Positions 1,837 to 38,085 of a DNA stretch of 64,000 bases are shown here, piece by piece. A program made the position numbers and the translations under genes. Under the pieces are notes generated by a model. That model saw only the letters and a list, made by a program, of their open reading frames with translations. It searched no databases and was not told where the DNA came from. The stretch is taken from contig DAXETY010000030.1 in the NCBI GenBank assembly GCA_051155755.1, positions 4,551 through 68,550 of the forward strand. Direction: 5' to 3'. Every line of letters begins with the position of its first letter. Position 1 is the stretch's first letter. The DNA is from Desulfobacterales bacterium (GTDB lineage: Bacteria > Desulfobacterota > Desulfobacteria > Desulfobacterales > SG8-13).

Positions 1837-2075
1837 GGTTCGATTGGTTGGATTGGTTCAATTGGTTCCCGGATTGCAGTGCCTATCAGAAATTGAAACG
1901 GCGAAAGGACGGAACGGCGAAACGGCGCAAACCAAGCGCTTTCATGGTATTTGGTTTTCATTTTACACTTTAGGCATTTATAATTTTAGGCATTTACTTT
2001 GAGCTTTCAGCTTTCAGCTTTGAGCTCATTTGCTATGAACTATGAGCTATCAGCTATCAGCTAACTGCTATGAAC
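1837..2075 (+). repeat. Composite repeat island A: (GGTTNNATT)x3, GAAATTGAAACGGCG core, TTTAGGCATTT x2, TTT(G/C)AGC x4, TAT(G/C)A(A/G)C x4-5
   Basis: Read directly from the sequence; the same modules recur at 17345-17580 and 23259-23775. Confidence 0.9.
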
Positions 2076-2969
2076 AACAACCCCGACACCCTGATCGACC
2101 GCTACCTGGAGTATCTTCTGGTGGAAAAGGGGCTGGCCCGCAAGACGCTGGAGGCCTACAGCCTCGATCTGGCCGGCTACGCCGACTTTCGGATCGGCCT
2201 GGGTGCGAAAGAATTCTCCGAAGAAGATACCGCCCTGATCCTGCGGTATCTGATCGCGCTGCGCGGCCGTGGGCTGAGCGCCCGCAGCCGGGCCCGCCAC
2301 CTGGTCACCATCCGGGGGTTTTATCAGTTTCTGGTAGCGGAAAACGTGTTGGAAAAAGACCCCTCGGTGTTGATCGACCTGCCCAAAAGCGGTCTGAAAC
2401 TGCCGGAGGTGCTCTCTTACGACGAAGTTCGCCGCATTCTGGACGCACCCGATGTGGAAAAATCCAACGGCATCCGGGACGCGGCCATGCTCGAGCTGCT
2501 GTATGCATCCGGCTTGCGGGTATCGGAGTTGGTAAATCTCCGCGTTCAAGACGTCAACCTGGAAGCCGGTTATGTGAGGGTTTTCGGCAAAGGCGCCAAA
2601 GAGCGCGTTGTTCCTTTCGGTCGCCACGCCCGGGAAAAAATGAGCGGCTACCTGGAATCGGCCCGCAGTCGTTTGTTGAAAGGCCGTTCCAGTATCTATC
2701 TGTTTCCGGCCCGGGCCGGCCGGCCGATGACCCGGCAGGGGTTCTGGAAACTGCTGCGCCGTTACTGCACCAAAGCCGGTATTCGCAAAACCATCACACC
2801 GCACACGCTGCGGCATTCCTTTGCCAGCCACCTTCTGGAAGGCGGAGCCGATCTGCGTGCCGTTCAAATCATGCTGGGACATGTCGACATCGCCACCACC
2901 CAGATTTACACCCATGTGGCCCGGGATCGCTTGAAGCAGGTCCACCGCAAGTTTCATCCGCGGCAGTGA
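2070..2969 (+). CDS. xerD: Site-specific tyrosine recombinase XerD
   Basis: ELLYASGLRVSEL, GKGAKERVVP, HTLRHSFASHLLEGGADLRAVQIMLGHVDIATTQIYTH and C-terminal HPR. Confidence 0.93.
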   Translation: MNNNPDTLIDRYLEYLLVEKGLARKTLEAYSLDLAGYADFRIGLGAKEFSEEDTALILRYLIALRGRGLSARSRARHLVTIRGFYQFLVAENVLEKDPSVLIDLPKSGLKLPEVLSYDEVRRILDAPDVEKSNGIRDAAMLELLYASGLRVSELVNLRVQDVNLEAGYVRVFGKGAKERVVPFGRHAREKMSGYLESARSRLLKGRSSIYLFPARAGRPMTRQGFWKLLRRYCTKAGIRKTITPHTLRHSFASHLLEGGADLRAVQIMLGHVDIATTQIYTHVARDRLKQVHRKFHPRQ

Positions 2970-3161
2970 CGATCCCGGCTTGACTTCCAGGATGGCTTCC
3001 CTTACCCTGTAAGGCTTTCGGAGCACGGCACATCCGCATCATGGTTGCATCATGGTACGGAACGAATTGACGGATCAGGTGCCCGGATTTGCAATTGCCG
3101 GTGGCCCATCCGGTGCGCCAAACAAGTCATATGGGTTTTAAGGGGCTTGCATCCCCGGAGA

Positions 3162-4847
3162 ATGCTGTCTATGCACCTTGACATCGATCTTCATAACCCC
3201 GTCGGCTGGTGGTTTGACCCGCAGCAAACGCCGCAAACAGGCAGTCAGGCCTTGCGCACGGCCTTACACGACGTCCGATCGCCGCTTTATCTGGTCAATT
3301 TCGACGGCCGCCCGGCCGTGGTGCGAAACGGAACGGCAACCTTGATTCCGAAGGCCGACCGCCGCAGGCCGGAAAAAACACTGCCGCTGCTGGCTGCAGT
3401 CCCACCGCTGCACCCGCGAAACCTGGGAAGTCCTCATTTTCGTCGAGCCGTCGGTGTGCATTATCCTTACGTGGTGGGTGCCATGGCCAACGGCATCACT
3501 TCCGTCACCATGGTGGAAGCTGCCGCCCGGGCCGGGCTGCTCGCATTTTTCGGTGCCGCCGGACTGGTTCCGTCCGAGATCGAAGCGGCCGTTCGAAATC
3601 TGCAGCAACGCCTCGTCAATCTCCCGTTCGGATCGAACCTGATTCACAGCCCCAACGAACCGGAACTGGAAAAAGCCACCGTCGAACTGTACCTGAACCT
3701 GGGTCTGCGACTGGTCAGCGCATCGGCCTATCTGGATCTGACCCCTCCGCTGGTGCACTATCGCGTGAAGGGGGTCCATCGGGACGCGGATGGGCGAATC
3801 GTCTGTCCCAACCGGGTGGTAGCCAAAGTTTCGCGGATCGAAGTGGCGCGAAAATTTTTCGCGCCGCCGCCGGAAAAAATCCTGCGCCACCTGCAGGACA
3901 GCCACCAGATCACTGCCGCCGAAGCCGACCTGGCCCGCCGAATCCCCCTGGCTGACATGCTGACTGCCGAAGCCGACTCCGGCGGTCACACCGACAACCA
4001 GCCGGCCATCGCCCTGCTGCCGACCATGCTGGCGCTGCGGGACCGGATGGTCGAACGCCATAGCTATGACCGACCGCTTTGTGTGGGACTGGCCGGGGGC
4101 ATTGCGACACCGGAGTCCACCGCCGCCGCTTTCGCCCTTGGCGCCGACTATGTTTTGACCGGTTCGGTGAACCAGGCCTGCCTGGAAGCCGGCACGTCCA
4201 CTGCGGTCCGGGCCATGCTGGCCGAAGCCTGCCAGGCAGACGTCACCATGGCGCCGGCGGCCGACATGTTCGAAATGGGCGTCAAGGTCCAGGTCCTCAA
4301 ACGCGGCACCATGTTCGCGTTCCGGGCCGCCCGACTGTATGATTTGTACTGCCGCTATGGTTGCCTGGCGGATATTCCAGAAAGGGATATTCAATTTCTG
4401 GAGCGGGACCTGTTTCGACGCAGTATTTCAGAGGAATGGGAGGCGACCCGGGTTTTTTTCCAGCAGCGCGATCCCCGTCAGATCGAGTTGGCCGGTTCCG
4501 ACCCCAAGCACAAAATGGCGCTTGTGTTTCGCTCTTACCTGGGACGCTCGTCCACGTGGGCCAATATGGGCGAATCCAGCCGCAAAATCGATTATCAGGT
4601 CTGGTGCGGCCCTTCCATGGGCGCATTCAACGAGTGGGCCCGCGATTCGTTTCTGCAGGCGCCGGATCACCGCACCACGGAGACGGTGGCCCTGAACCTG
4701 CTGCTGGGCGCCGCGGTGAAAACCCGGAATCACTGGCTCCGCAGCCAGGGGGTCGAACTGCCGGTATCGACGGCCGCTTTCCGCCCCCTGCCGCTGCCGG
4801 AAATCCGCAAACTGCTCGACGGTTCGTTTGCCGACCGGACCGGTTGA
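3162..4847 (+). CDS. pfaD: PfaD-family enoyl-ACP reductase (PUFA synthase)
   Basis: GAMANGI, NLIHSP, EADSGGHTDN, APAADMFEMGVKVQVLKRG and DYQVWCGP motifs. Start uncertain (3162 or 3171). Confidence 0.93.
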   Translation: MLSMHLDIDLHNPVGWWFDPQQTPQTGSQALRTALHDVRSPLYLVNFDGRPAVVRNGTATLIPKADRRRPEKTLPLLAAVPPLHPRNLGSPHFRRAVGVHYPYVVGAMANGITSVTMVEAAARAGLLAFFGAAGLVPSEIEAAVRNLQQRLVNLPFGSNLIHSPNEPELEKATVELYLNLGLRLVSASAYLDLTPPLVHYRVKGVHRDADGRIVCPNRVVAKVSRIEVARKFFAPPPEKILRHLQDSHQITAAEADLARRIPLADMLTAEADSGGHTDNQPAIALLPTMLALRDRMVERHSYDRPLCVGLAGGIATPESTAAAFALGADYVLTGSVNQACLEAGTSTAVRAMLAEACQADVTMAPAADMFEMGVKVQVLKRGTMFAFRAARLYDLYCRYGCLADIPERDIQFLERDLFRRSISEEWEATRVFFQQRDPRQIELAGSDPKHKMALVFRSYLGRSSTWANMGESSRKIDYQVWCGPSMGAFNEWARDSFLQAPDHRTTETVALNLLLGAAVKTRNHWLRSQGVELPVSTAAFRPLPLPEIRKLLDGSFADRTG

Positions 4848-4913
4848 ATCCGCCTGCCTCCGATTTCCACTGCAAATCGGCATGGAAGCGATCAGAGAAA
4901 AAGGGCATCCTTG

Positions 4914-5510
4914 TCAATCCTGCGTGGACTTCGTATCTTCGCGCAACGCCGCAAAATGTCTTCGGTCCAGTTCCAGGGCCCCTACGAACCAGCGCAGCGC
5001 GTCGGTCACCCGCAACAGAGCGCCCCGAAACCGCTCCGGAGCCGGTGTGCCGTCGGGTTGCACCCGCTCGACAAACCGTTCCTCAACGAAGGCATCCTCC
5101 AGCCGATGCCGCTCCAAAAGTCCGCGCAGACGATATTGAAATACCGGTACCCGGCCGGGACCGGAAGGCATGCGATAAATTTCGATGGAAAGATCGCGGA
5201 CGCGGGTCCAAGGGATTGATTCGACCTGATTTTTGGAAACGGTCCCGGTGAAAATCCCACTCTGCAGAAGCCAGGGGTTCAAATCTGACAGAATCATGCG
5301 GGCTTCCGGTATGACAAACTTCAGATCGGCCACCAGCACCCCTCCCAGAAACACGGTCAGCGCATCGTCGACACTGTACTGGCGCGCATAGCCGGACTGC
5401 AATCCGCCCAGTGGATCCGGCGGCAGAAACTCGCGCGACCAACGTTTCCATTTGGCGGTCGGCAGGCTCAATCGCCGGGCCAATTCCCGGTTGGTATAAA
5501 AACGCAACAT
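4914..5510 (-). CDS. Hypothetical protein with N-terminal MerR-like helix-turn-helix
   Basis: YTNRELARRLSLPTAKWKRWSREFL...GYARQYSVDD resembles a MerR/excisionase wHTH. Divergent from pfaA. Confidence 0.6.
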   Translation of the reverse strand: MLRFYTNRELARRLSLPTAKWKRWSREFLPPDPLGGLQSGYARQYSVDDALTVFLGGVLVADLKFVIPEARMILSDLNPWLLQSGIFTGTVSKNQVESIPWTRVRDLSIEIYRMPSGPGRVPVFQYRLRGLLERHRLEDAFVEERFVERVQPDGTPAPERFRGALLRVTDALRWFVGALELDRRHFAALREDTKSTQD

Positions 5511-5529
5511 GATAAAATCTCCATGGTTG

Positions 5530-5559
5530 TTTACTTGTTATATCAATATAACAAGTAAA
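5530..5559. promoter_or_regulatory. Perfect 14-bp inverted repeat, candidate operator
   Basis: TTTACTTGTTATAT-CA-ATATAACAAGTAAA in the AT-rich divergent gap between the HTH gene and pfaA. Confidence 0.65.
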
Positions 5560-5751
5560 AAATTACGTCAATCCCTTGCTTTTTTTCGGCAAATGCCTTA
5601 TAAAAATAAGCTTATCTGTGCATCCAAACATTCATTGTATCTGCGGCGACCTCGACAATCGCTCAAATTCGGTTTGACAAAGGGTCATCGACGCGTTTCC
5701 TGCATGCAGATCCTCTCTGAATGAAAATTCTTAACTTCAGGGTAACGGCCT

Positions 5752-8700
5752 TTGAAAACTGAAACCGAGACCAACGGCGCTTCCGATATCCCGATTGCCG
5801 TTATCGGCCTGGGATGCCTGTTTCCCCGGTCCAATGGGTTGCACGAATACTGGCGCTTGCTTCTGGAAGGAGAAGATGCCATCGGTGAAGTGCCCCCCAG
5901 CCACTGGTCGGCCGGAGATTATTTCGATCCCGATCCGAAGAAACCGGACCACACTTACTGTACGCGCGGCGGTTTCCTGTCGCCGGTGATTTTTGACCCC
6001 ACCGAATTCGGCATACCGCCCAACAGCCTGGAGGCCACCGATACCTCCCAGTTGCTGGGATTGGTGGCCGCTAAAATGGCACTGGAGGATGCCGGCTACG
6101 TTGACGGAAAGGACTTTGCCCGGGAGCGCACCAGCGTGATTCTCGGGGTCACCGGCACCCAGGAGCTGGTGGTGCCGCTCGCCTCCCGACTCGGCCACCC
6201 GCGATGGCGGCAGGCGTTGCAGCAGGCCGGAGTTTCACCGGAGACCAGCGAAGCGGTGATCGACGGAATTGCACAGTCCTATGTCCCCTGGCAGGAAAAC
6301 TCCTTTCCGGGTCTGCTGGGCAACGTCGTGGCCGGCCGAATCTGCAACCGCCTGAATCTGGGCGGCACCAATTGCGTGGTGGATGCTGCCTGCGCCAGTT
6401 CCATGGGAGCGTTGCACCTTGCCCTCATGGAGCTTTACGCCGGTCGCAGCGACATGGTGATCACCGGGGGTGTCGATACGCTCAATGACATCTTCATGCA
6501 CATGTGCTTTGCCAAGACCCGCATTCTGTCGCCCACCGGCGACATCCGGCCGTTTTCCCAGGATGCCGACGGCACCCTGCTGGGGGAAGGCGTCGGCCTG
6601 CTGGTGCTCAAACGCCTTGCCGATGCGCAACATGACGGAGATCGCATCTATGCCGTTCTGCGGGGCATCGGCAGTGCCAGCGACGGCCGCTCCCAGAGCA
6701 TATACGCCCCCCGCAAGGAGGGCCAGGAGCGATGCCTGCAGTCGGCCTATGCCGCAGCCGGCATCGATCCGGCGACGGTTTCCCTGGTCGAAGCCCACGG
6801 TACGGGCACCCGGGTCGGTGACAAGGTCGAATTCGAGGCGCTGAAAACGGTTTTCGCCTCCCGCAACGGTTCCAGTGAGCGCTGCGCGTTGGGATCGGTC
6901 AAATCCATGATCGGTCACACCAAGGCCGCCGCCGGGGCCGCCGGACTGATTAAAGCCGTCCTGGCACTTCATCACAAGGTTCTGCCGCCGACGCTCAAGG
7001 TGCAACAGCCCGATGCCCAGCTTGATATCGAAAACAGCCCCTTTTACCTGAACACGCGCAGTCGTCCCTGGTTTGCCGGTGAGGGACAGTCCCGAAGGGC
7101 CGGTGTCAGCGCCTTCGGCTTCGGTGGCAGTAATTTCCACGTGGTATTGGAAGAATCCGGCCCTTCAAAAACCGATACTGCCTGGGACAGCCAGGTCGAA
7201 ATCCTGGCTCTGTCCGCCGATTCGAAGCCGGCGCTGCTGGAAAAGCTGCATCGACTGCAAAACGATGCGGCAAGTGCCTACGAAAACGACCGGTTTTCGG
7301 TTCTGGCCGCCGACACCCGTGGCGAGTTTTCCGCTGAGGCTGCCCATCGCTGGTTGTGGGCCGCGGACCACGGCACGATGAAAACACGCGGGCCTTCCGC
7401 CATCCTGGCAGAAGCCCTGCAGGCCATCGGGCCGGATGCGTCGGACCTTCGCCCGGTAAACCGTTCGATTTTCTATGGCAAGGGACCCAAAAACGGCGGG
7501 CTGGCCTTTCTGTTTCCCGGTCAGGGCAGCCAGTATCCGGACATGGGCCGCGACCTGGTCTGCCGATTTCCGGAGGCCTTCGCCGTGCTGGAAAATGCCA
7601 ATCGGCACGTCGAGGGAGAACGGAAACTCACGGACTGGATTTATCCCGAATCGCCGGCCGCTCGAGCCAACCGGCCTCCGGACGGATTGACGGACACCCG
7701 GATCGCCCAACCGGCCATCGGGGCAGTCAGCCTGGCCATGCTGCGGGTTTTGCAGCGTTTCGAGCTTCGACCCCAGGCTCTTGGCGGACACAGCTTTGGG
7801 GAGCTGACCGCCCTGGCGGCGGCCGGGCGCCTTCCGCAACCGGAATTTTTAAAACTGGCGGCGGCGCGCGGGCGCTTGATGGGCGATGCCGGCCGGCGAC
7901 AGCCGGGGGGCATGACCGCCGTGCAGGCGCCGCTGGAGCGGATCGAGGACTTGATTGCCGAACACGGGTTGGATCTGGTGCTGGCAAACCGTAACGCTCC
8001 CAATCAGGGAGTGGTATCCGGTGCCCCGGCAGCGCTGAAAACCTTCGAAACGCTGTGCCGGTACCAGGGTATCCGCAGTGTGCGCCTGCCGGTTTCGGCC
8101 GCTTTTCACAGCCCGCTGGTGGCCGAGGCGCTGAAGCCCTTTCAGGAAGTCGCAGCCCGGGTTGCCTTCCAGTCCGCCACGATTCCGGTTTACGCCAATG
8201 CCACCGCCGGAATCTACCCTGCCGGGGAAGACGAAAGCGCCGCACTCATGGCCCGCCAGCTGCGCCAGCCGGTGTGCTTTGTCGAAATGATCCGAGCCAT
8301 GCATCGGGACGGCATGCGCATGTTCGTTGAAATCGGCCCCAGAAAGATTCTCTCCGGCCTGGTATCGGCGATCCTCGCCGAAGAACCGTCCGTGCGAACC
8401 GTTGCGATGGATGCCTCCGGAGGCCGACACTCCGGATTGTACGATCTGGCCGAAGTCCTTTGCACCCTGGCCGCCGCGGGTTACGGTCCGAACCTGCGCC
8501 GCTGGGGAAACGCCACCCGCAAAAAGCGATCGACGCGTATGCAGGTTCGCCTTACCGGAGCAAACCATGTCTCACAAAAAACCACCTTCGCACCGCCGCC
8601 GGCGCCTGCAAAACCCCGCCCGTCAAGCAATCGGACGCAAAACCAGCAAGAGCCGCGACCTGCGCTGCCCGCTGCAGCGGCAAGCCGGCATGACGATGCA

Positions 8701-12279: not shown

Positions 12280-12308
12280 TCAACAACCACCGCAAAGCGG
12301 ATGGCTTG
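12278..12308 (+). mobile_element. IS200/IS605-end-like hairpin, copy 1
   Basis: AGTCAACAACCACCGCAAAGCGGATGGCTTG; near-identical to 46406 and 61931. Confidence 0.55.
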
Positions 12309-12311
12309 GAT

Positions 12312-12569
12312 TTACCTGCTGCGACACTCGGCGGCCATCAACCAACGAAAAAAAGATCCGCCATAGCCGGGGCCGGGATATCGCCTTCCGTACCGCTTCA
12401 TGTAGAGGCCGTAATCCTCGCCTCGTAGAATCGCGTGGACCACCGCAACGCTCAGCACCGTATCGTCGGTAAAGGTTGAGTGGCGGGGAAACTATGGAAA
12501 TTCGGTGTGTTTCACCGGTCGGTGCTCATACATTGAACCGATCACATCGCCTGCAATGGCACCCGGCAT
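12312..12569 (-). pseudogene. Truncated ADP-ribosylglycohydrolase (DraG/ARH family) N-terminal fragment with internal TAG
   Basis: MPGAIAGDVIGSMYEHRPVKHTEFP*FPRHSTFTDDTVLSVAV...YGRRYPGPGYGGSFFRWL. The GAIAGD and TDDT motifs are diagnostic. Stop at 12492-12494; only about 85 codons remain. Confidence 0.8.
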
Positions 12570-12761
12570 CGACGGCCTCCGCTTCCCTGAATCTTGGATT
12601 CCGCAGAAATATTGCTTGATTATTTGGGTGATTGGACTATGATAAAAGACAGGTTTTGGTGCCCCTGCATACCGGTAAGCGCCTGAACCGTCACTTCTTT
12701 TAAGTTGGGCGTTCCGCGGCCGGGGTCAATGGTAACTGCGCACTTCAAAGGAGTTTGTGAT

Positions 12762-12962
12762 TTGCCCGAAGGAACTGTCAAATGGTTTAACGATCGGAAA
12801 GGGTATGGGTTCATCACCAAAGACGAAGGTGGAGACCTGTTCGTGCATCACACGGCCATTTTAATGGAGGGTTACCGCACCCTGACGGAGGGACAGCGCG
12901 TCCGCTTCGAAATCGAGGACGGCAGTCGCGGACCGGCAGCCAAAAACGTGGAAAAATTGTAG
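12762..12962 (+). CDS. Cold-shock protein (CspA family)
   Basis: [31 protein letters not shown]; TTG start after AAGGAG. Confidence 0.95.
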
Positions 12963-12982
12963 CCGCAACGATCGGTAAAAAC

Positions 12983-13015
12983 AAAAAACCCCGCCCAGCC
13001 GGACGGGGTTTTTTT
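12983..13015. terminator. Bidirectional intrinsic terminator
   Basis: AAAAAACCCCG-loop-CGGGGTTTTTTT between convergent genes. Confidence 0.85.
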
Positions 13016-13038
13016 ATTGGGTTTCAAATTTCCGGGAC

Positions 13039-13650
13039 CTATAAAAGCCCCGCTTTTTTCTTGACCCGCAGCAGTCCCGGGCCCGTATTGAGAAACATCA
13101 AAGACGAGCGCAAGCCCAGCCGCAGAAAGCACTGCTCCAGCGCATCGAACAGCACCGGCCGATCCGGCCAGGTAAAGGTTCTTCGCCGGGTTTCAAAAGC
13201 ACGCCACTGGTCCTGCAACACCGGATCGGCGGCCAGAACCTCCTGTTGGACGCGGTTGCACAGGAACATGGCGCAAACGATGGGTCGAAGCTTCCAGCCG
13301 CAGCCGGCCCGGCCCAGATAAATACACTTGTCCCGGCGTTCGGGACGCTGCAGTCGCGCCACCAGCGCGTCGATATCCGGTTCCGCAGAATCCAACACGT
13401 TAACCGCCACATCGGCGAAGAACACCACGATGCCGTCCTTCGAACAGCAGGCACTGAGCCTGCGCCGAAAACACTGTCGCGTGCAATGGGCCGCAAAATG
13501 CTTCGCCTGAAACGCATCCAATTCCCTGCGAAACCGCAGATAGGGCTGCACCATCTGCCGCAACCCTTCGATCTCGCCGATGGACAGCCTCCCCAGTCCG
13601 CAGATCACCGTCTGAAAGGCGTCGTATTGTTCCTGCTGATATTCGTTCAT
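13039..13650 (-). CDS. Cys-rich hypothetical protein (YkgJ/Fe-S or Zn cluster-like)
   Basis: CTRQC...SACC and CIYLGRAGC...RPIVCAMFLC; start overlaps the gspD stop. Confidence 0.7.
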   Translation of the reverse strand: MNEYQQEQYDAFQTVICGLGRLSIGEIEGLRQMVQPYLRFRRELDAFQAKHFAAHCTRQCFRRRLSACCSKDGIVVFFADVAVNVLDSAEPDIDALVARLQRPERRDKCIYLGRAGCGWKLRPIVCAMFLCNRVQQEVLAADPVLQDQWRAFETRRRTFTWPDRPVLFDALEQCFLRLGLRSSLMFLNTGPGLLRVKKKAGLL

Positions 13651-15512
13651 GGAGAAACGGGTGGACGGATGTCGCCGTTGGCGGCCGGATCGGTCACAGG
13701 TGCCTGCACCGCGGCCTGCAAAGGATTGCGAACGATCCGCGGTGTCAAAAATACGAAAAAACGACTCGAACGACTTTGATCCGCGTCGATGCGAAACAGC
13801 GGTCCGATCGCCGGCTGATCTCCCAGGAACGGTACCTTGCGCTGGTTGTCGTTCCGGCTTTCTTCCACGATGCCGCCGATCACCAGCGTGTGCCCGCTGC
13901 GAAGCAACACCGAGTTGTTCAATGTCCGATGCAGGGTGGTCGGCCTGAAATCAACCGTGGACTGCACCGCCGAAAGCTCCAGGTTGAAATCGATCCGAAT
14001 CTGTTCCTTCTGTCCGATGTGGGGCGTAACGGTCAGCACGGTGCCGACGTCCCGGTATTCGAAGGAGTTGAAGGTTTCATTTTGTTCCGTGGAGGTGCTG
14101 GTTTGAAACGGAATGTTGCGACTGATATTGATGCGGGCCTCCTCGTTGTCGGTGGCCAGGATTTGCGGGGTGGATAGAATCGACACATCCTCGTCTTCCC
14201 GAAATGCCTTCAGGATGGCCGAAAGATTGTTGAAGGTCACCCCGGCGATGTCCACCGGTTCGGTAAACACCCCCAGCGAAAAGCCGTCCGCCAGCGCTCC
14301 CCCCACCAGTGCCGGCAGGGCACTCACCCCGGGGGCGTCACGAAACCCGCCTCCCACGAAAGTGTTTCGGCCCTCCAGGGTCCTTTCACCGGCCGCGCTC
14401 CACTCGATGCCCAGTTGCAGTTCACGCTGGCTGCGCACTTCCATGATCAGCGCCTCGATATAGACCATGGCGCGGGGTGCGTCCAGTTGCAGGATAACCG
14501 CCTCGAGCGCCGATTGCTGGGCCGGATCGGCATCGACAATCAGGCTGTTGGTGGCGGTATCGGCCAGAACGCGCACCGGTTGTCGAACGCCGGGCATACC
14601 GGCCGCCACCGATGACAGGATCTCGGCGGTCTCTTCAACCCGGGCAAATGAAAGCCGATGAAGCTGAATGCGTCCTTTTTCGAGCGGTTTTTTTTCGTCC
14701 AGGGCGCGAATCAGCGCTTCGATGGCGGAAACCTCCGGTTCTGGACATCGAAATACGAGCAGGTTGGATCGTTCGGCCGGAAAAAAGCGAATCGGTGGCC
14801 GTTGCGCGGCGCTCTGCGTTCCCGGCCGGGATTCGAACAAGGGATTGAGCGTTTCGGCCATCTCGCGGCTGTCGGCATATTGCAAAGGGACCGCGGCGAT
14901 TCGAGTCCCTTCGTCCTCAATGTCGACGGCATCGACAATTTTCATCAGGCGCGAGATGTTGGAAGCCGTATCGGTGACCACCAGCAGATTGGCCGAAGAA
15001 ACGCTGAGCAGGGCCCCATGTCGGGACACCAGGGGTGTCAATACCGTCTTCAAGAGGCCGGCATCGGCATAAAAAAGCGAGATTACCCGGGTGACGAGCC
15101 GGTCTTCGGTCGACGGCGCATCCACCAAGGGCAAATTTTTGGTGACCGCATCGGCGGACGGCAGAATCTTGGTTGCCGCTCCGGCATCGACCACGGTAAA
15201 GCCGTGCACATCCAACACCGAAAGAAAAACGGCATACACGTCGGCGGCGGAAATCCGGGCGGGGGAAATCACTGTGACCGTGCCCCGAACCCTGGGGTCC
15301 ACCAGAAAATTCCGTCCGGTGAGTTCGCTGACGAACCGGATGAAAACCCGGATGTCTTCGTTCTGAAAATGAAAAGTGATCCGGCGATCATCTTCGCCGA
15401 AAGTACCGGACCCGGGGGTATCGGCGGCGGCAGGGCCGACAAACGGCGCGGCCGGAATCAGCAGCAGCAGCAGAATGACGGCAATTCGCAGAATGCTCAG
15501 CGGCGGCATCAT
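13647..15512 (-). CDS. gspD: Type II secretion secretin GspD
   Basis: FQNEDIRVFIRFVSELTGRNFLVDPRVRG, N-domains, ILSTPQILATDNEEA, YRDVG, KVPFLGD. Confidence 0.92.
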   Translation of the reverse strand: MMPPLSILRIAVILLLLLIPAAPFVGPAAADTPGSGTFGEDDRRITFHFQNEDIRVFIRFVSELTGRNFLVDPRVRGTVTVISPARISAADVYAVFLSVLDVHGFTVVDAGAATKILPSADAVTKNLPLVDAPSTEDRLVTRVISLFYADAGLLKTVLTPLVSRHGALLSVSSANLLVVTDTASNISRLMKIVDAVDIEDEGTRIAAVPLQYADSREMAETLNPLFESRPGTQSAAQRPPIRFFPAERSNLLVFRCPEPEVSAIEALIRALDEKKPLEKGRIQLHRLSFARVEETAEILSSVAAGMPGVRQPVRVLADTATNSLIVDADPAQQSALEAVILQLDAPRAMVYIEALIMEVRSQRELQLGIEWSAAGERTLEGRNTFVGGGFRDAPGVSALPALVGGALADGFSLGVFTEPVDIAGVTFNNLSAILKAFREDEDVSILSTPQILATDNEEARINISRNIPFQTSTSTEQNETFNSFEYRDVGTVLTVTPHIGQKEQIRIDFNLELSAVQSTVDFRPTTLHRTLNNSVLLRSGHTLVIGGIVEESRNDNQRKVPFLGDQPAIGPLFRIDADQSRSSRFFVFLTPRIVRNPLQAAVQAPVTDPAANGDIRPPVSP

Positions 15513-16387
15513 CGGATGGAATACTCGATTTTCCGGTCACGTCCGCCGCGTTTGAGGTCCAGCGTTACGTTCTCGGAAGATTTCAGGCTGTTGTAAAAAG
15601 TCATGGCGTCATCGACCGATTCGATGGTGCGGCCGTTTACCCCGGTGATAATATCGCCGTTTCTAAGCCCCATTCGCATGAAGAGCGAATTGGGGCGGAT
15701 GCGGGACAGCATCAAGCCGTCCGGCTGTCCCCGGTAGAAATGCGGCCGAATATTCACCTGGCTCATCAGCTGGGTGACGTCCTGCATGGCCTCTTCGACC
15801 TGTCCGCGCCGCAGCGTGATGCGCTGGGTGCGTACGGGCCGGTTGGTCGGCGGTGTCGGCAGGTTGGAACGATTGATGGCGGCAGGGCGCGTTCCTGCAG
15901 CCCTTCCAGCGGCCTTTTCGAGTTCGAGCACTTCGTCTTTGCCGTTCACGTTCAGCACCACCTTCTCCCGCAGGATCATCTTGACGGTGGCATCCTGAAC
16001 CGTGTCCCCCACGCGGTAAAGGTTCTGTTCCCGCTTGCCCGATTCTTCGATTACGGCATAATCCTGCTCGGGACTACCCGTGACGGTGCCCCAGAGTTTG
16101 AGTTGCAGGCGGGTCTGCTCCAGGTTTTCCAGATCTAAGGCCCGGCTGGGCGGCGGCGCCGGAACGGTATCCTGGGTGCCGAAGAGATTCCGTTGCGCGA
16201 TCGCCTCGTAGTGCGTCGGGGGCGGTCGCCGACTGGCCTGCGATGCGTCGTCGTCTGCGGCCACTTCCGGCAGCGTCGGCAACGGATCGATCCGACTGGT
16301 GGTCACCATGTAGAAGGCATTGACGCCGAAGTACACGATCGCACCGATAAACAGCAAGTTCAGAAGCGTGAACGAATATCGGGTCAT
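15509..16387 (-). CDS. gspC: Type II secretion protein GspC (TM-HR-PDZ)
   Basis: N-terminal TM, RNLFG, LKLWGTV, PDZ GLRNGDIITGVNG; directly upstream of gspD. Confidence 0.88.
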   Translation of the reverse strand: MTRYSFTLLNLLFIGAIVYFGVNAFYMVTTSRIDPLPTLPEVAADDDASQASRRPPPTHYEAIAQRNLFGTQDTVPAPPPSRALDLENLEQTRLQLKLWGTVTGSPEQDYAVIEESGKREQNLYRVGDTVQDATVKMILREKVVLNVNGKDEVLELEKAAGRAAGTRPAAINRSNLPTPPTNRPVRTQRITLRRGQVEEAMQDVTQLMSQVNIRPHFYRGQPDGLMLSRIRPNSLFMRMGLRNGDIITGVNGRTIESVDDAMTFYNSLKSSENVTLDLKRGGRDRKIEYSIR

Positions 16388-16421
16388 CGTAATTTCCTGC
16401 TCGCGCGTTTCATGCGTTTCG

Positions 16422-17288
16422 CTATTGGGTTTTCAGCTCCAGATCATCCAGGGTCCCTGAAATCCTTACGGGTATGCCTTTGGATGCCAGTTGATTCACC
16501 AGCCCGCCGAGGCCGTCCGAGTCGGTTTCCTGCAGAATACCGGGCTGCGGTTTCAATCTGCCCTCCAGGTCCAGGCGGCTGTCGCGCAGGGAACGTCCGA
16601 TGCGGCCCGTACCGGAAAGGCTGCCTTCGACTTGATCACCGGAAAGCTGAATTTGGCGTACCTGCAGTTGTTCGTTTTTCAATATGGCATCGGCCCGCAG
16701 GGATTCAATCCGGACCTGCTTCAGTACCATCAGCGGACGGCTCAGGGTCACCTGGAGGTTATCGATCCGCGCGTCAGCGATCACGTGCCTTCCATGGGAC
16801 GCTCCATTTGTGTAGGAGACCTTTCCGGAAAACACTCCCTGCAACGGAGATTCGGAAATCATTCGCGTCAGCGGCATGTCGCTCAGATCGATTCCATGAA
16901 ACTGAACGTCCACCTGCAACAGCGGTTGGTCGTCCGTTGTGATCCAATCGGCGGTTCCCGTAATTTCGCCGCCATGGGCTAAAATGCGGAACCGATATCC
17001 GGTCCCGATCCCCAGGATGGTTTTCAGCTTGGGGTTGACCCATGCGCGTTCGGCCTCGAACAACGGTTGGTTGATGCGTTTTACGGACAATCGCCGAATC
17101 TCTATTCCGGGTGGAAAGCTCGGTTCCACCTGTTCGAGCTTCGCTTGAATTTCGGGTCCGAACTGCGCACTCTGAGCGACGATAAATCGCTCCACCGTTT
17201 CCACCGGGAAGCGCAGGTAAGCAAAAATCAACGCCAGGGCAACGGCGAACAGACCGTAAGACAGCCAGATTTTAAAATTCTTCATCAT
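16422..17288 (-). CDS. gspN: Type II secretion protein GspN-like
   Basis: N-terminal TM ending in YLRFP, beta-rich body, C-terminal ISGTL; gsp context. Confidence 0.7.
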   Translation of the reverse strand: MMKNFKIWLSYGLFAVALALIFAYLRFPVETVERFIVAQSAQFGPEIQAKLEQVEPSFPPGIEIRRLSVKRINQPLFEAERAWVNPKLKTILGIGTGYRFRILAHGGEITGTADWITTDDQPLLQVDVQFHGIDLSDMPLTRMISESPLQGVFSGKVSYTNGASHGRHVIADARIDNLQVTLSRPLMVLKQVRIESLRADAILKNEQLQVRQIQLSGDQVEGSLSGTGRIGRSLRDSRLDLEGRLKPQPGILQETDSDGLGGLVNQLASKGIPVRISGTLDDLELKTQ

Positions 17289-17344
17289 CCGGTAGTTTAT
17301 CACTCGGATCATCGCTTGGCAAGGCGTGTAAAATGAAAAGCAAA

Positions 17345-17580
17345 TCCCATGAAAGCTTGGTTTTCGCCGATTCGCCCTCTCTCCGTTTCAATTTCGGGAA
17401 CGCAACACCCTTCGGCAACCAATTGAACCAATCGAACCAATCAAACCAATTGAACCAGTTCTGCGCCCTCTCGCCGTTTCAATGACTTAGGTTCTCATCC
17501 ATTGGCATCCGGCCGACAACGGACCACGGACAACTGACAACGGACAAAGAACGCCGGCGAAGCCGGCAACCCGCAACCCA
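17345..17580. repeat. Composite repeat island B: inverted core and (AACCAATNN)x4, GGAC(A/C)AC heptamers, GCCGGC-GAA-GCCGGC hairpin, AACCCGC heptamers
   Basis: The reverse complement of 17383-17481 matches 23321-23419 at 92/99 by hand alignment; 17347-17395 also matches island A inverted. Confidence 0.9.
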
Positions 17581-17651
17581 ATTACCGATTGACCCCACGC
17601 CGAATTTATGGTTTACTTATGGTTTTTCATCCACTCATTTGGCCTTTTTCC

Positions 17652-20600: not shown

Positions 20601-23252
20601 CGCACCGAACCGCGGCCAGCTTCCCCGGCTTTGGAAACGGCGACCGGACCCGATGAAACGGAAATACCGCGGGAGCCAAACACCGAAGTCTTGCGACGCA
20701 GCTTCGAAGCCACCGGCGCGGCCCATCGCCGCTTTCTGGAATTTTCACAGGACCTGACCCGCAACTACGGGGAGGCCTTCGCACTGCAGAATCAGCTGCT
20801 GCAAAAACTGCGCGGTCCCCGAAGGGAATCGGGCCGAACGGCTTCGGCGGAATCGCCGCCGTCCCAGACCGCCCCCAAGCCGGCGCCGTTGTATTCCAGG
20901 GATCAGTGCCTGGAGTTTGCAACCGGCCGGGTGTCCCGTGTTCTGGGACCGAAGTTTGCAGACGTTGACCGCTACGCGGCCCGTGTCCGGCTGCCGGATG
21001 AACCATTGATGCTGGTCGACCGGATCCTGACCGTCGAGGGCGAAAAAGGCTCGCTGTCTTCGGGACGGGTGGTAACCGAACACGACGTGCGCCCCGACGC
21101 CTGGTACCTGGACGGCGGACGGGCTCCGGTGTGCATTGCCGTTGAAGCCGGCCAGGCCGACCTGTTTTTGTGCGCCTATCTGGGAATCGATCTGGCGGTC
21201 CGGGGCCGGCGGGTGTACCGGCTGCTGGATGCCAGCGTGACCTTCCACCGGACGCTTCCCCGGCCGGGAGAAACGATCCGCTACGACATCCGCATCGAAA
21301 AATTTATCCGGCAGGGCGACACTTACATGTTCTTCTTCAATTTCCGGGGCACCATTGGAAGCGAGCTTCTGATCCGGATGACGGACGGCTGTGCCGGGTT
21401 TTTCACCGAAGCGGAAATTCGCTCCTCGGGCGGCATCCTGGGAGGCGGCGGCCAAGCCGATGCCCGCCAGGGGCGCAGGGATCCTGGCTTTCGCCCCCTG
21501 GTTGCCGTGCGGCGAGCCAGTTACGACGATCAGGCCCTGGATGCCCTGCGAAAGGGGGACCTGGCGGCCTGCTTCGGTGATGATTTCCGTTCGGTGGCGC
21601 TGGCCGAAGGATTACGGCTGCCCGGTGGACGCATGAAACTGATCGACCGTATCCTCGATCTGGAGCCCGAGGGCGGCCGATCCGGCCTCGGCCGTATCCG
21701 GGCCGAAGCCGACATCCATGGGGACGACTGGTTTTTGACCTGTCATTTCGTGGACGACATGACCATGCCCGGCACCCTGATGTACGAATGCTGCGCCCAC
21801 ACCCTGCGGGTGTTTCTGCTGCGTCTGGGGTGGGTCACCGACCGGCCGGAGGTGCGCTATGAACCGATTTCAGAGGTCAAAAGCGTTCTCAAATGCAGAG
21901 GGCCGGTCACACCGAAGACCCGCAAAGTCGTCTATGAGGTGGAAATCCGTGAGATCGGCTATCGACCCGAGCCATACGTGATTGCCGATGCGCACATGTA
22001 TGCCGATGGCCGCTACATCGTTCGCTTCATGGACATGACCCTGCAGATGGTCGGCCTCGATCGAAACATGCTGGGAACCGACTGGGCAAAGCGCAACGAC
22101 CGCTCACCGGCCCCGGTGGAACCAACCATTCGGTTTAACCGACAGCAAATCCTGGCCTTTGCCGTAGGCCGACCCTCGGAAGCTTTCGGCGCTGCATATC
22201 GTCCCTTCGACACGGATCGCTTTATCGCCCGGCTCCCCGGACCGCCTTATTCTTTCCTGGACCGCGTCGTCGGGATCGAGCCCCGTCCCTGGGAGCTGCC
22301 CGCCGAAGGGTGGGTCGAAGCCGAGTACGACCTGAAGCCGGCCGCTTGGTTTTTCCGGGCCGATCGTTCGGGAATCCTGCCGTACTGCGTGATGATGGAG
22401 ATTGCATTGCAGGCCTGCGGCTGGCTGGCTGCATATGCCGGATCGGCGCTGCGCAGCCAACGCGGGCTGCGGTTCCGCAATCTCGACGGCCGCGCCACAC
22501 TGCTGCGCGACGTGCCGCCGTGCCGTGCCACCCTGACGACCCGCTGCCGGATGAAAAAAATGTCCGCTTCCGGAGACATGCTGATCGAATCTTTCGAATT
22601 TCAGGTTCTGTTTAAAAACGCGGTAATTTTCGAAGGCGACACGTCATTCGGATTTTTCACCCGCGAAGCGCTGCAAGCCCAGAAAGGCATCGCCGCCGCA
22701 GAAGGTCCGGTCGAGTTGGAAGCCAATCAGACCGGCATGCCGATCGGTCTGAAGGACGAACCGCCGCTGACCCCGGAAGATCCCGATGAAAAGCCTGCCC
22801 GCGGCGCCGCGCTTCCCGCCCGGGCGCTGCGGATGATCGATCGCATCGACACCTACCTGCCCGACGGAGGCCCCCACGGGCTCGGCTACCTGCGGGCGAT
22901 CAAAACCGTCGATCCGTCCGAGTGGTTTTTCAAGGCCCATTTTTTTCAGGATCCGGTCTGCCCGGGGTCTCTGGGGGTCGAATCCTTTCTGCAGCTGCTC
23001 AAGTTCGCCGCCCTGCAGCGCTGGCCGGCCCTGGCCGACTCCCGGCGCTTTGTCCACCGCCTGCAAAAGCCTCATACCTGGAAATACCGCGGCCAGATCC
23101 TGCCCCACAACCGCCGGGTGGAAGTCATCGCCGCAATCACCGCAATCGAGGAAGGACCCGAACCGGAACTTCGGGCCGACGGATGGTTGAAAGTCGATGG
23201 GCTGACCATCTATCATCTGAAAGATTTCGGCATCGCGATGGCGAAAATCTGA
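17652..23252 (+). CDS. pfaC: PfaC-like PUFA synthase subunit (KS-CLF-FabA-type DH domains)
   Basis: KS DAACASS, HGAGT, GHLL; degenerate second KS (CLF); FabA-like DWFLTCHFVDDMTMPG and EWFFKAHFFQDPVCPGSLG. No AT motif seen. Confidence 0.88.
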   Translation: MQSPLQIAVVGMAGIFPGAGDLEQFWNNLIHKKAAVRDVPSHRWAAPARWMVQPEPAPDRARSQRCCLVEDLAFDPEGFAIDADLLAALDPLYHMVLQAGRNAVSRPVSVRLNARRTGTVLAAIALPTESASTLTRKMFHSLFEHQLFGTSSGYRIPSMKERLAARVTSLPASLLAAALSLEGGSLTLDAACASSLYAVKLACDALAAGRVDAMLAGGVSRPDCLYTQVGFSQLRALSPSGRCAPFDREADGLVVGEGAGILVLKRLADALREGDKVYGIIRGIGLSNDMRGNLLAPDTEGQLRAMQTAYRVSGWNPTDVDLIECHGAGTPVGDATELTSLTALWADHQWRPGQCAIGSVKSAIGHLLTAAGAAGMIKTLLAMQAKSLPPSLHFSEAAADSPLVGGPFRVAIEAAPWERRTPDTPRRAAVSAFGFGGINAHLLLEEPPISAEERTAHAQPERVPAMTTTSGGPDAAPIAITGMETIFGAAGSLEAFQDRIFQTAPGLLQRPADRWKGCEALLADVPDLFRLHGGFFESICLPSDMFRIPPRELPEILPQHLVMLQAAAGALIDAAMPLRRERTDMGVIVGLDFDYEATNFQFRWSLYERIDRWCETNGLPLDTEARIRWREALQQAAGPPLTSTRTLGALGGVVASRLAREFRFGGPSFGVSCGRISGLRALEIAVRMLQQQETAAMLVGAVDMAGDLREMLVGMQSYSRGDAIRAFDRESDGTLPGEGAAAVVLKPLDRALKDGDRVYAVIRGVGISGNAQMGTTASGPRIDAITRALAEAQLETSSIDHIEVHGSGVPAEDDAEAHALSSLPVKSGRSRSVGATAPILGDTGCAASLAGLIKTAVCLHQRRIPPLATPRIPVLPAMDFPDRSRPWPQSDPATPPRACLTMGSDDGNAAAVVLEAAKRPDNGTQSRAENIRSDHRPVEGRRLSIPVGGPRLQAVPWKHFAHGQLTTSAAASETAPANAVREYRTEPRPASPALETATGPDETEIPREPNTEVLRRSFEATGAAHRRFLEFSQDLTRNYGEAFALQNQLLQKLRGPRRESGRTASAESPPSQTAPKPAPLYSRDQCLEFATGRVSRVLGPKFADVDRYAARVRLPDEPLMLVDRILTVEGEKGSLSSGRVVTEHDVRPDAWYLDGGRAPVCIAVEAGQADLFLCAYLGIDLAVRGRRVYRLLDASVTFHRTLPRPGETIRYDIRIEKFIRQGDTYMFFFNFRGTIGSELLIRMTDGCAGFFTEAEIRSSGGILGGGGQADARQGRRDPGFRPLVAVRRASYDDQALDALRKGDLAACFGDDFRSVALAEGLRLPGGRMKLIDRILDLEPEGGRSGLGRIRAEADIHGDDWFLTCHFVDDMTMPGTLMYECCAHTLRVFLLRLGWVTDRPEVRYEPISEVKSVLKCRGPVTPKTRKVVYEVEIREIGYRPEPYVIADAHMYADGRYIVRFMDMTLQMVGLDRNMLGTDWAKRNDRSPAPVEPTIRFNRQQILAFAVGRPSEAFGAAYRPFDTDRFIARLPGPPYSFLDRVVGIEPRPWELPAEGWVEAEYDLKPAAWFFRADRSGILPYCVMMEIALQACGWLAAYAGSALRSQRGLRFRNLDGRATLLRDVPPCRATLTTRCRMKKMSASGDMLIESFEFQVLFKNAVIFEGDTSFGFFTREALQAQKGIAAAEGPVELEANQTGMPIGLKDEPPLTPEDPDEKPARGAALPARALRMIDRIDTYLPDGGPHGLGYLRAIKTVDPSEWFFKAHFFQDPVCPGSLGVESFLQLLKFAALQRWPALADSRRFVHRLQKPHTWKYRGQILPHNRRVEVIAAITAIEEGPEPELRADGWLKVDGLTIYHLKDFGIAMAKI

Positions 23253-23258
23253 TACGTA

Positions 23259-23775
23259 CAATTGGTTTGATTGGTTTGATTGGTTCAATTGGTTGACGGA
23301 ATGCCGGGCGCATCTGAAGCTGAAACGACGAAAGGGCACAGGCCTGGTTCAATTGGTTTAATTGGTTCGATTGGTTCAATTGGTTGCCGAAGGGTGTTGC
23401 GTGCCCGAAATTGAAACGGCATAAAAACGGTTTCATTGGTTTGATTGGTTCAACTGGTTCGGTTGGTTGACGGATGCCGGGCGCATCTGAAGCTGAAACG
23501 GCGAAAGGGAGAATCGGCGAAACGGCGTAATGTCGGTTCGATTGGTTGGATTGGTTGTCTGGGTTGAGGGTTGCGTGTTACGGGTTGCGGGTCGCGCGTT
23601 GGCTACCCAGGCTTTTTATAACGGATGAACTATGAGCTATGAACTATGAGCTATCAGCTACGAACTATGAGCTATGAACTATGAGCTATGAGCTATGAAC
23701 TATGAGCCATTAGCTATAAACTTTTTTAGGGACCACGGACCACTGACGCCGCGCAGCGGCAAACGGACTAACGGA
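23259..23775 (+). repeat. Composite repeat island C: three to four ~85-nt units of (ATTGGTTNN)n + linker + TGAAACG, then GGGTTGC heptamers, about 14 x TATGA(A/G)C (23624-23721) and GGACCAC heptamers
   Basis: Read directly; units at 23259-23338 and 23435-23510 are near-identical. Confidence 0.93.
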
Positions 23776-37132: not shown

Positions 37133-38020
37133 ATGCCACTGCAAAAACCGACAAAATTCAGTCTGCTGGATGCGCTGGTGGCGCTGCTGATGCTCGCCGG
37201 CGCCGTCGGCCTGGGGTATCGATTGGAAGCCGGTCTTCATTATGAGTGGGACTGGGGGATCGTACCCCAGTACCTGTTTCGCTATGACGCCGAGACCGGG
37301 CGGTGGGTGGCCAACGTGCTGATCGAGGGCTTGCTGACAACCGTCCGGCTGAGCTTCTGGGCTACAATTCTGGCAACCCTCTTCGGGACGGCGGCCGGGT
37401 TGCTGCGGATCAGCGGCAGTGTGTTTCGGCGCCTGACGGGCGCCACCTACGTAGAAATCATTCGCAACCTGCCGCCGCTGGTACTGGTATTTATTTTCTA
37501 CTACTTCATCGGCGATCAAATCCTGCCCGCCCTGGGCATCGACCGAGTATACGGTCAGCTGCCCGAAACCGGTCAGACCTTGCTGCGGTGGCTGTTCGCG
37601 CCACCGGCCCGGTTGACCTCGTTTCTTTCAGCGGTGTTGACCCTGGCGTTGTTCGAAGGGGCCTACATCGCCGAGATTGTGCGCGCCGGAATTCAGTCCA
37701 TCGAGAAAGGTCAGTGGGAAGCCGCCGATGCCATCGGTCTGAGCCGGTTTCAGCGGATGCGCCGGGTGATCTTTCCCCAGGCAATGCCTCGCATTCTGCC
37801 ACCCCTGGCAGGTCAGTTCATCTCCACCATCAAAGACTCGGCCATCGTTTCGGTAATCTCCGTTCAGGAGCTCACCTTCCAGGGAATGGAGCTGATGGCC
37901 TCCACCTACCGCACCTTCGAGGTCTGGATTACGATCACCGGACTCTATTTTCTGTTGACCATGAGTTGCTCACTGGCAGTGGGCCGTCTCGAGTTGCGGC
38001 TGCGGCGAAAATTCGCCTGA
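37133..38020 (+). CDS. Polar amino-acid ABC transporter permease
   Basis: YVEIIRNLPPLV, AYIAEIVRAGI...GQWEAA, TIKDSAI. Confidence 0.9.
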   Translation: MPLQKPTKFSLLDALVALLMLAGAVGLGYRLEAGLHYEWDWGIVPQYLFRYDAETGRWVANVLIEGLLTTVRLSFWATILATLFGTAAGLLRISGSVFRRLTGATYVEIIRNLPPLVLVFIFYYFIGDQILPALGIDRVYGQLPETGQTLLRWLFAPPARLTSFLSAVLTLALFEGAYIAEIVRAGIQSIEKGQWEAADAIGLSRFQRMRRVIFPQAMPRILPPLAGQFISTIKDSAIVSVISVQELTFQGMELMASTYRTFEVWITITGLYFLLTMSCSLAVGRLELRLRRKFA

Positions 38021-38085
38021 GGCAGGGAACTCGGCCGAAAGTACAAACCGAAGTGCACGTTGGCGCAATTCTGGTGACCAATGTT

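Follow-up and report, generated by a model that had tools for sequence, protein, structure and literature searches.

What kind of element recurs three times beside the pfa and ole genes of an uncultured, sulfate-reducer-like Desulfobacterales bacterium? The stretch considered here (the window) is 64,000 nucleotides of contig DAXETY010000030.1 in assembly GCA_051155755.1, positions 4,551 to 68,550 of the forward strand, and window coordinates are counted from its first letter. Three gaps between its genes hold islands of short tandem repeats: island A (1837-2075), island B (17345-17580), and island C (23259-23775). A first-pass annotation had described them as one kit, consisting of a 9-mer array, a second motif about 25 nt further on, and heptamer arrays of four types, with the core on the plus strand in A, the minus strand in B, and the plus strand in C. 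It had also proposed that the kit brackets the pfa-ole locus, as empty sites or scars of a cassette system or as protein-binding or RNA-structural elements tied to lipid and envelope operons. Every piece of the description was confirmed. The tie to lipid and envelope operons was not: about 160 gene gaps of the genome, beside diverse housekeeping genes, carry this family, and islands A, B, and C are three of them and not pfa-ole specific. We read the islands, with moderate confidence, as gene-less, mostly unpaired arrays of the same material that forms intervening sequence (IVS)-type stems around S23p genes.

Spread and order of the array family

The assembly comprises 4.29 Mb in 169 contigs (57.9% G+C, 85% complete), and rough gene calls made for this analysis gave 3412 genes (84% coding). 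Seven unit families make up the kit, namely, the 9-mers N (ATTGGTTNN) and A (TTTAGGCAT), the 8-mer E (GGCGANNN), and the heptamers G (GGGTTRC), D (GGACNAC), Y (TATGAGC), and F (TTTSAGC). Module counts depend on regular-expression scans, for which the reversed sequence served as the control. The genome holds 92 N arrays (5 in the control), 91 E arrays (22), 87 D arrays (20), 61 G arrays (4), 44 Y arrays (3), and 27 F arrays (1), an excess that ranges from 4-fold for E and D up to 27-fold for F. Independently, Tandem Repeats Finder (TRF) returned the kit units as the commonest consensi of periods 7, 8, and 9 in the genome. Depending on the family, 78 to 100% of the arrays are not wholly inside a called gene. 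The excess over the control and the intergenic bias place the family with sequences of the short tandemly repeated repetitive (STRR) type, i.e., tandem units of 5 to 11 nt that are mostly intergenic.

The arrays are grouped into 158 intergenic islands on 70 of the 169 contigs, a count that leaves out arrays inside called genes and lone 8-mers. At least two arrays are present in 88 islands and at least three in 51, and the latter fill a median of 74% of a 357-nt gap. The regions up to 300 nt from contig ends make up 2.4% of the assembly and carry 18 of the islands; this five-fold enrichment indicates that the real number of islands exceeds 158. The genes beside 20 other islands are diverse housekeeping genes, including rpsA, sua5, dnaB, putA, hemC, dnaK, mdh, and histidine kinase genes, and the gene pairs that enclose islands include cbiG and cobQ, uvrB and uvrC, and murG and murC. 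No neighbor family recurred beside N arrays in 134 loci, the largest cluster (3/134) being a YbaB/EbfC-like nucleoid-protein ORF. That cluster (L020, L031, and L109) comes from other Desulfobacterales metagenome-assembled genomes (MAGs) and probably represents one orthologous junction. Relative to co-oriented flanking genes, 46 islands have the same orientation and 42 the opposite one (p = 0.75), D arrays are on the same strand 16 times and on the opposite strand 16 times, and island orientation showed no GC-skew polarity (Fisher p = 0.12). Among 38 Y arrays, a start codon lies within 30 nt of the array end in 10 cases and a stop codon in 7.

The modules follow a fixed 5'-to-3' order, N > E > N > G > D > F > Y, with semi-conserved linkers between them. 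Same-strand neighbors are directional, with N preceding G in 14 cases and following it in 1, G preceding D in 12 and following it in none, and similar counts for D before F (11 and 0), F before Y (6 and 0), E before D (10 and 1), and E before Y (7 and 0), while N and E alternate (15 and 11). Neighbors of the same type on opposite strands were found in one arrangement only (N+N- 11 to 0, D-D+ 7 to 0, and E+E- 6 to 0), and when loci fetched from other genomes are included, 39 N pairs are convergent and 2 are divergent. Convergent pairs without a gene also exist, with inner segments of 14 to 251 nt. The directional neighbors and the recurring linkers bear out the first-pass view of one ordered kit rather than independent slippage.

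Within the units, conserved cores alternate with free positions. In N, positions 1 to 7 are conserved at 83 to 93% and positions 8 and 9 at just 45 to 48%; E has five positions at 93 to 98% and three near 60%; and G and D have two soft positions each. Genome-wide, the N-to-E linker retains a length of about 30 nt, and its sequence is kept just in the last few bases. The arrays of this genome are short (2 to 5 units), and 84 of 89 N arrays are distinct. Adjacent N units carried the same spacer dinucleotide in 14 of 99 cases, against an expected fraction of 0.168. Neighboring units, which are alike in slippage products, are thus no more alike here than by chance, indicating that the N arrays did not arise by fresh slippage.

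Arrays around S23p genes

The genome has two PF05635 (S23p/Avd-like) genes, and both are enclosed by convergent arrays of kit units. On contig C93 (locus L250), the gene lies between 4 E units on the plus strand (37617-37649) and about 19 on the minus strand (38077-38260), at 44 and 70 to 100 nt from the ORF ends. On contig C42 (L251), it lies between 9.4 G units on the plus strand (7625-7690) and 2.7 on the minus strand (8122-8142), at 55 and 60 nt from the ORF ends. The genes around the two cassettes are housekeeping genes (GT28 and histidine phosphatase in one case, MutL and amidase in the other), and no reverse transcriptase is adjacent to either S23p gene.

The same bracketing is found throughout the order. 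A survey yielded 31 S23p loci in 30 genomes, and the 28 genes with at least 300 nt on both sides were counted. Arrays flank 23 of these on both sides (15 strict inverted pairs of the same unit and 2 direct ones) and the other 5 on one side only, and none of the 28 is without an array. This agrees with the link to four-helix-bundle genes that the first-pass annotation had mentioned. In relatives, the arms are N-type in three genomes (G010, G016, and G035), E-like in G003, and of the G family in G029. Other arm units differ in their spread, GAAACTN being dispersed (39 to 51 matches in three genomes) and TRGTGTT intermediate. The cassettes look vertically inherited rather than mobile, judging from their flanks: 8 of 11 S23p pairs with at least 62% identity have homologous flanks, the three exceptions sharing one single-flank locus, and pairs at 46 to 60% identity have no flanks in common (0/14). 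Literature searches, in which subscription journals were thinly covered, returned no general link between S23p genes and tandem arms and no such mosaics in Desulfobacterales.

The counterpart of these cassettes is the 23S rRNA IVS of Coxiella burnetii, Leptospira, and other bacteria. In the relevant passages of PMC4990558, the Coxiella S23p ORF lies within a stem of terminal inverted repeats that is cut by RNase III, and it is preceded by tandem heptamers whose number varies among strains. The likeness lies in an S23p ORF between complementary ends with tandem heptamers of varying number beside it. In contrast to the IVS as described in those passages, for which stem cutting by RNase III is known, the cassettes here lie between protein-coding genes and not in rRNA, their entire arms are tandem arrays, and the array families are also present at about 150 places that lack an ORF, mostly unpaired. 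An S23p ORF and convergent inverted arms are present in the C93 and C42 cassettes, and A, B, and C have neither.

We propose that two convergent arrays of one family closely enclosing a small S23p/Avd-like four-helix-bundle gene would constitute an IVS-type cassette. If such a pair were cotranscribed with its neighbors, its arms, as tandem repeats of a single core, could base-pair whatever their register, and pairing would then give a long imperfect duplex of the type that RNase III cuts in 23S rRNA intervening sequences. Gene-less arrays, paired or solo, would be derivatives of this arm material that persist in permissive spacers, and the arrays may be copied and shuffled among nearby spacers via recombination. 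We infer that paired arms form duplexes and are cut by RNase III and that the solo islands are neutral.

Several observations weigh against this proposal. The modules of islands A and C are all in direct order and unpaired, and island B has no same-type pair; therefore, the proposed duplex mechanism has no way to operate inside any of the three. The RNA fold z-scores, which were computed for these three islands alone, are near zero (-0.49 for A, -0.57 for C, and -0.37 for B) and indicate no excess folding. The wobble positions in the two arms of N pairs match at a rate of 0.473, compared to 0.470 when shuffled, so that the stems of N pairs would be 7-bp helices interrupted by 2x2 internal loops. 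The arm unit GGTTNTA is confined to its own cassette, so not all arm families are dispersed. There are only 2 S23p genes and 158 islands, and the 85%-complete assembly yielded no S23p gene whose arms are of the N, D, Y, or F family. In addition, the conserved cores, the randomized wobble positions, and the N-to-E spacing suggest that something reads solo arrays too. This core constraint is the chief observation for which neutral debris does not account, and it keeps a DNA-binding explanation alive.

Islands A, B, and C and their junctions

In the window, the two-unit ATTGGTTNN pattern (at most one mismatch) has 15 matches compared to 0.03 expected from 100 shuffles, and all 15 lie in islands A, B, and C. 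The motif TGAAACGGCGA by itself is weakly enriched (7 matches compared to 2.45 expected). GAAACG follows the 9-mer arrays after 24 to 25 nt in all three islands alike, in agreement with the described spacing, and GAAACG/TGAAACGG is the opening of the period-8 array GGCGANNN (1895-1932 in island A by TRF). The four heptamer types were likewise recovered by TRF, as CTTTCAG (1997-2026), TATGAGC-type units (2002-2071 and 23625-23717), GACAACG (17515-17547), and GGGTTGC (23561-23601). The three islands are of the solo, direct-order kind, with no cargo now and none demonstrable earlier: no S23p ORF, S23p relic, or cassette ORF lies inside any of them. A tblastn search with 28 S23p proteins found no relic near any island of the genome except the two cassettes.

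Folding of these sequences gave no sign of a structured RNA either, which does not agree with the RNA-structural role proposed in the first-pass annotation. RNAalifold found neither a consensus structure nor covariation in 20 N-linker-E units, and an Rfam scan of the window at the gathering score gave no matches. Promoter and terminator consensus scans of the three islands gave counts close to the shuffle means.

Island A occupies a 243-nt gap between an M24 peptidase gene (pepQ-like, 681-1826) and an XerD-like recombinase gene (2070-2969), and all of its modules are on the plus strand. Three ATTGGTTNN units (N, 1843-1869) start 17 nt past the pepQ-like stop and are followed by a linker of about 24 nt and the period-8 GGCGANNN array (E, with TGAAACGG at 1894; linker and array together, 1870-1932). 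A low-copy linker with 2 to 5 genome copies and an inverted counterpart in island B (1933-1968) leads to two TTTAGGCAT-type units (A module, 1969-1996), 4.3 CTTTSAG heptamers by TRF (F, 1997-2026), and CTATGAR/CTATCAG heptamers (Y, 2033-2075) that reach into the XerD-like start (ATG 2070). A sigma-70-like match (TTTTCA-18-TATAAT, 1955-1984) overlaps the A module; such matches are near the chance level. The XerD-like recombinase was found in 20/20 relatives searched and adjoins pepQ in 11/11 loci examined. With this neighbor present across relatives and no cassette ORFs in the islands, the arrangement does not resemble an integron.

Island B occupies the gap that separates pfaC (ATG 17652) from a divergently oriented type II secretion block (gspD, gspC, and a 296-aa ORF; 13647-17312). 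On the minus strand are the same low-copy linker as in island A and an E module (17326-17392), an N module of five units (17415-17459), and a second, short E module (17460-17484, with TGAAACGGCGA at 17471-17481). A D module of 4.7 GGACNAC heptamers (17515-17547) is on the plus strand, opposite to the other modules. A G+C-rich linker with a 7-bp hairpin (17552-17568) and two GGGTTGC units of a G module (together, 17552-17580) lie on the minus strand, and this arrangement of G, hairpin, and inverted D was found again on another contig.

Island C fills the 523-nt gap from pfaC (stop 23252) to oleA (ATG 23776), with all modules on the plus strand. It opens with three tandem N-linker-E units of about 91 nt each (23261-23534; N at 23261-23296, 23352-23387, and 23435-23470), which TRF reported as 2.9 copies with a 69% match. 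A fourth N module of two units (23541-23558) precedes a G module of 5.9 GGGTTGC heptamers (23561-23601), the two spanning 23541-23601. A conserved linker (23602-23624), of which 5 to 9 copies are present elsewhere in the genome, joins G to the next module, a Y array of 13.3 TATGAGC heptamers by TRF (23625-23717). Finally, 2.6 GGACCAC units (D, 23730-23747) end 29 nt upstream of the oleA start. The longest oleA ORF opens at an ATG inside the Y array (23695), and alignment with relatives gives 23776 as the true start.

By blastn, almost every base of the three islands, linkers included, recurs elsewhere in the genome. Island A has its best non-self match in island B (132 nt, 78%). Island B has its best genome-wide match in the second unit of island C: its N module with the linker (17383-17458) and positions 23344-23419 share 97.4% identity over 76 nt and flank pfaC as inverted copies. 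This identity points to recent copying between neighboring spacers, presumably shuffled by recombination, and the inverted copies might allow the 5.9-kb gene to invert or might record a recent gene conversion. The stretch is contained in 20 DNA sequencing runs from 9 studies, with no RNA run among those listed. In four public metagenome runs, no unitig spanned the interior of island C or the 9-mer array in island B. Unitigs break at the islands, whose internal copy numbers are therefore those of the deposited assembly. In the same four runs, read depth on island bins was 3 to 21 times that of flanking bins, with its peak on the Y array.

The genome has no close relative among species representatives, the closest OleA having 72% identity. 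Gene order around all three junctions is kept within the family. The pepQ-xerD spacer is about 7 to 390 nt in 11 relatives (243 nt here), the divergent gspN-pfaC spacer is about 330 to 500 nt in 8 relatives (about 340 nt here), and the pfaC-oleA spacer is about 30 to 190 nt in 13 relatives (523 nt here). None of these junctions carries an extra gene. The pfaC-oleA junction was also followed on metagenome contigs (best OleA identity, 71%), and no cargo gene was present in the 36 of 37 loci in which the spacer was measurable.

Some of the relatives' junctions have repeats of their own. In L161 (G003, another genus), the 390-nt pepQ-xerD spacer contains TTTAGGCAT-type 9-mer arrays as an inverted pair separated by about 165 nt. 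Among the metagenome loci, four other lineages (L204/L205, L208/L211/L213, L214-L221, and L222) have heptamer arrays in the pfaC-oleA spacer that are convergent and unrelated in sequence, the arms enclosing loops of about 45 to 75 nt and no gene. Directly 5' of the oleA start in genus g3 and its kin (L132-L138, L202, L203, and L209), an inverted copy of a 16-nt repeat is followed by two direct copies. This candidate oleA operator is absent from this genome.

The spread of the modules was compared over 40 relatives. N is abundant in two genomes only, with 89 three-unit matches here and 108 in G035, which belongs to another family. E has 71 matches here and no more than 2 in any relative, D has 46 and no more than 6, and Y has 93 and no more than 21. 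GNGTTNC was detected in 18 of the 19 genomes of the family and in three further genomes, reaching 154 matches. Across all species genomes, N arrays come mostly from Desulfobacterales-type MAGs, and this distribution gives the organism its placement. Kilobase-long, near-continuous ATTGGTTNN arrays occur in L050, L051, L111, and L112, the first two from an alphaproteobacterial (Stappiaceae) MAG. In G028, the reversed Y-pattern control matches about 1600 times, and this genome has a very large heptamer family of its own (RANYATC type).

Elsewhere in the window, a small cold-shock-protein-like ORF, judged by eye from its translation, lies on the plus strand between pfaA and the type II secretion block (12705-12962) and is followed by a G+C-rich terminator-like hairpin with a T run (about 12985-13015). 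A 15-nt tandem repeat of 5.3 copies (55493-55571) within a 268-aa minus-strand ORF (55347-56153) is probably a coding pentapeptide repeat unrelated to the islands.

Alternative explanations and known systems

The arrays may instead be read as DNA. In this explanation, which we regard as possible though doubtful, they would be duplex platforms for cooperative sequence-specific binding, with one unit per dimer or subunit, and the solo islands would be functional sites. Ribbon-helix-helix proteins on 7-8-bp repeats provide the model, and the binder would be a host nucleoid or regulator protein or a toroidal S23p pentamer. The conserved cores of 5 to 7 bases with 2 to 3 free positions per unit are consistent with this, as are the kept N-to-E spacing with its free linker sequence, the lack of an orientation preference, the lack of excess RNA structure, and the use of one of two possible inverted arrangements. 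The omega/ParB protein of pSM19035 acts on 7 to 10 contiguous non-palindromic 7-bp WATCACW repeats with direct or inverted neighbors (passages of PMC9499535), and paired tandem 8-, 9-, and 7-mers in Geobacter metallireducens were read by its annotators as sites of IHF/HU-type global regulators (passages of PMC2700814). However, no binder was identified, several binders would be required for seven unit families, the repertoire of units changes from genus to genus, a fast pace for a host regulon, and the N arrays have no recurrent neighbor. An unlikely further explanation makes the S23p protein itself the reader: the arrays would be the recognition sequence of toroidal S23p/Avd-like pentamers, with each S23p gene between its own binding units, about 4 to 5 units bound as DNA or RNA, and the protein maintaining or spreading its family genome-wide, like a REP-associated tyrosine transposase (RAYT) between repetitive extragenic palindromic (REP) sequences. 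According to passages of PMC4990558, the Xanthomonas S23p protein is a homopentamer of four-helix bundles, and in PMC10053308, as far as its relevant passages go, PF05635 is likened to the Avd protein of diversity-generating retroelements.

It is quite unlikely that the family is a selfish, non-autonomous mosaic repeat mobilized by a transposase in trans, similar to the REP/bacterial interspersed mosaic element (BIME)-RAYT systems or to miniature transposable elements with inverted repeats (MITEs), with no involvement of S23p function. The high copy number, lineage-specific repertoire, both orientations, mosaic and truncated forms, and conserved linkers would fit, as would the absence of the arrays from the relatives' orthologous junctions and the presence of three Y1_Tnp genes. 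However, none of these Y1_Tnp genes is flanked by kit modules, and Y1_Tnp occurs in 37/41 genomes irrespective of arrays; we therefore rejected a RAYT link. The scan of 12 ORFs between 681 and 28528 found no transposase, as the first-pass annotation had noted. The units are direct repeats, not palindromes, and although 14 N pairs could pass as terminal inverted repeats of a MITE, target-site duplications are lacking: the longest shared flank word averages 3.5 nt, compared to 3.37 nt in controls, and none reaches 6 nt. Moreover, GGGTTRC persists in 18/19 genomes of a family whose proteins are about 70% identical, a long time for a parasite that has no visible mobilizer. The empty sites or scars of the first-pass annotation, left by insertion and excision of a small-gene cassette, are a very unlikely origin of A, B, and C. 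Kit arrays do bracket both S23p genes here and most in the order, and gene-less convergent pairs exist, but S23p relics are lacking near the other islands, cargo genes are lacking at the relatives' junctions and the measurable metagenome loci, the flank homology points to vertical descent of the cassettes, the N pairs have no target-site duplication, and the modules of A and C are unpaired. Sense-strand RNA elements acting on translation or stability of the downstream gene, as TAACTGA-like elements or CsrA GGA-motif sites, are highly improbable. Although the Y array abuts the XerD-like start in island A, D units, which contain GGA, precede the oleA start in island C, and about a quarter of the Y arrays are close to a start codon, island and D-array orientations are evenly split, some Y arrays end near stop codons instead, and conserved RNA structure was not found. 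The least probable explanation is a separate origin at each site by replication slippage, with the islands as independent microsatellites (contingency loci). Long simple-sequence repeats with tandem units of 7 to 9 nt are known from scattered bacteria (passages of PMC4679880), and homogeneous long arrays with higher-order periods occur in relatives, G035 among them; the fixed module order and common linkers contradict this origin, as do the short arrays and the dissimilarity of neighboring units.

BIME mosaics of REP in enterobacteria and BOX elements in pneumococci are intergenic and combine a few module types with characteristic linkers in variable module number. REP units are palindromic and tied to RAYT transposases. 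In contrast, the units here are direct repeats without the palindromic hairpin of REP, their fold z-scores are near zero, and Y1 genes are neither adjacent nor codistributed. Cyanobacterial STRR sequences are short, intergenic tandem heptamers with a patchy phylogenetic spread. Dispersed intergenic heptamers near gene ends have also been described for Xanthomonas (GGGAATC) and Nostoc (GGGGAYT) (Rehm et al. 2015, PMC4692102), where, in the passages on them, they occur on either strand relative to genes (30% and 35%), form 70 to 75 convergent inverted pairs per genome, and are mostly transcribed. Those genomes have one unit family each, read as G-quadruplex formers, whereas here seven families of 7 to 9 nt stand in fixed order and only GGGTTGC has quadruplex potential; an S23p link is absent from the passages on these arrays (PMC4692102).

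The multicopy classes 1 to 3 of G. metallireducens (Aklujkar et al. 2009, PMC2700814) are similar in consisting of tandem 8-mers (four copies), 9-mers (three), and 7-mers (five) in opposite-strand pairs at variable distance. As described in the relevant passages, they are intergenic, present in tens of copies, and unique to one species of the genus. Paired sites of this type (3 to 5 tandem 7-9-mers on opposite strands) occur in the family studied here, but not within A, B, and C. The unit sequences differ, IHF/HU-type binding was proposed there, and a fixed multimodule order and an S23p link are absent from those passages. The TAACTGA repeats of marine Beggiatoaceae (MacGregor 2015, PMC4679880) share the short intergenic tandem heptamers and the patchy phylogeny. 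In the passages concerned, they are in sense orientation a few nucleotides upstream of start codons, whereas orientation here is random (46:42) and start and stop codons are touched alike (10/38 and 7/38).

Intergenic heptamer-type arrays have been recorded from cyanobacteria, Xanthomonas, Beggiatoaceae, and Geobacter, and no function of theirs has gained acceptance. For annotation, the islands matter in that they create false long ORF starts, from an ATG within an array as at oleA, and interrupt assemblies made from short reads. They do not serve the pfa-ole locus as a dedicated control device, and A, B, and C most probably play no specific part in the expression of pfa or ole. This genome adds a multifamily kit with strict order and polarity, per-position constraint on the cores with free spacer positions, and a repeated physical link between arrays and S23p/Avd-like genes that makes a descriptive puzzle testable. 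If the S23p recognition explanation is true, the heptamer arrays of cyanobacteria, Xanthomonas, and Geobacter, a puzzle of decades' standing, would gain a trans-acting partner and a mechanism.

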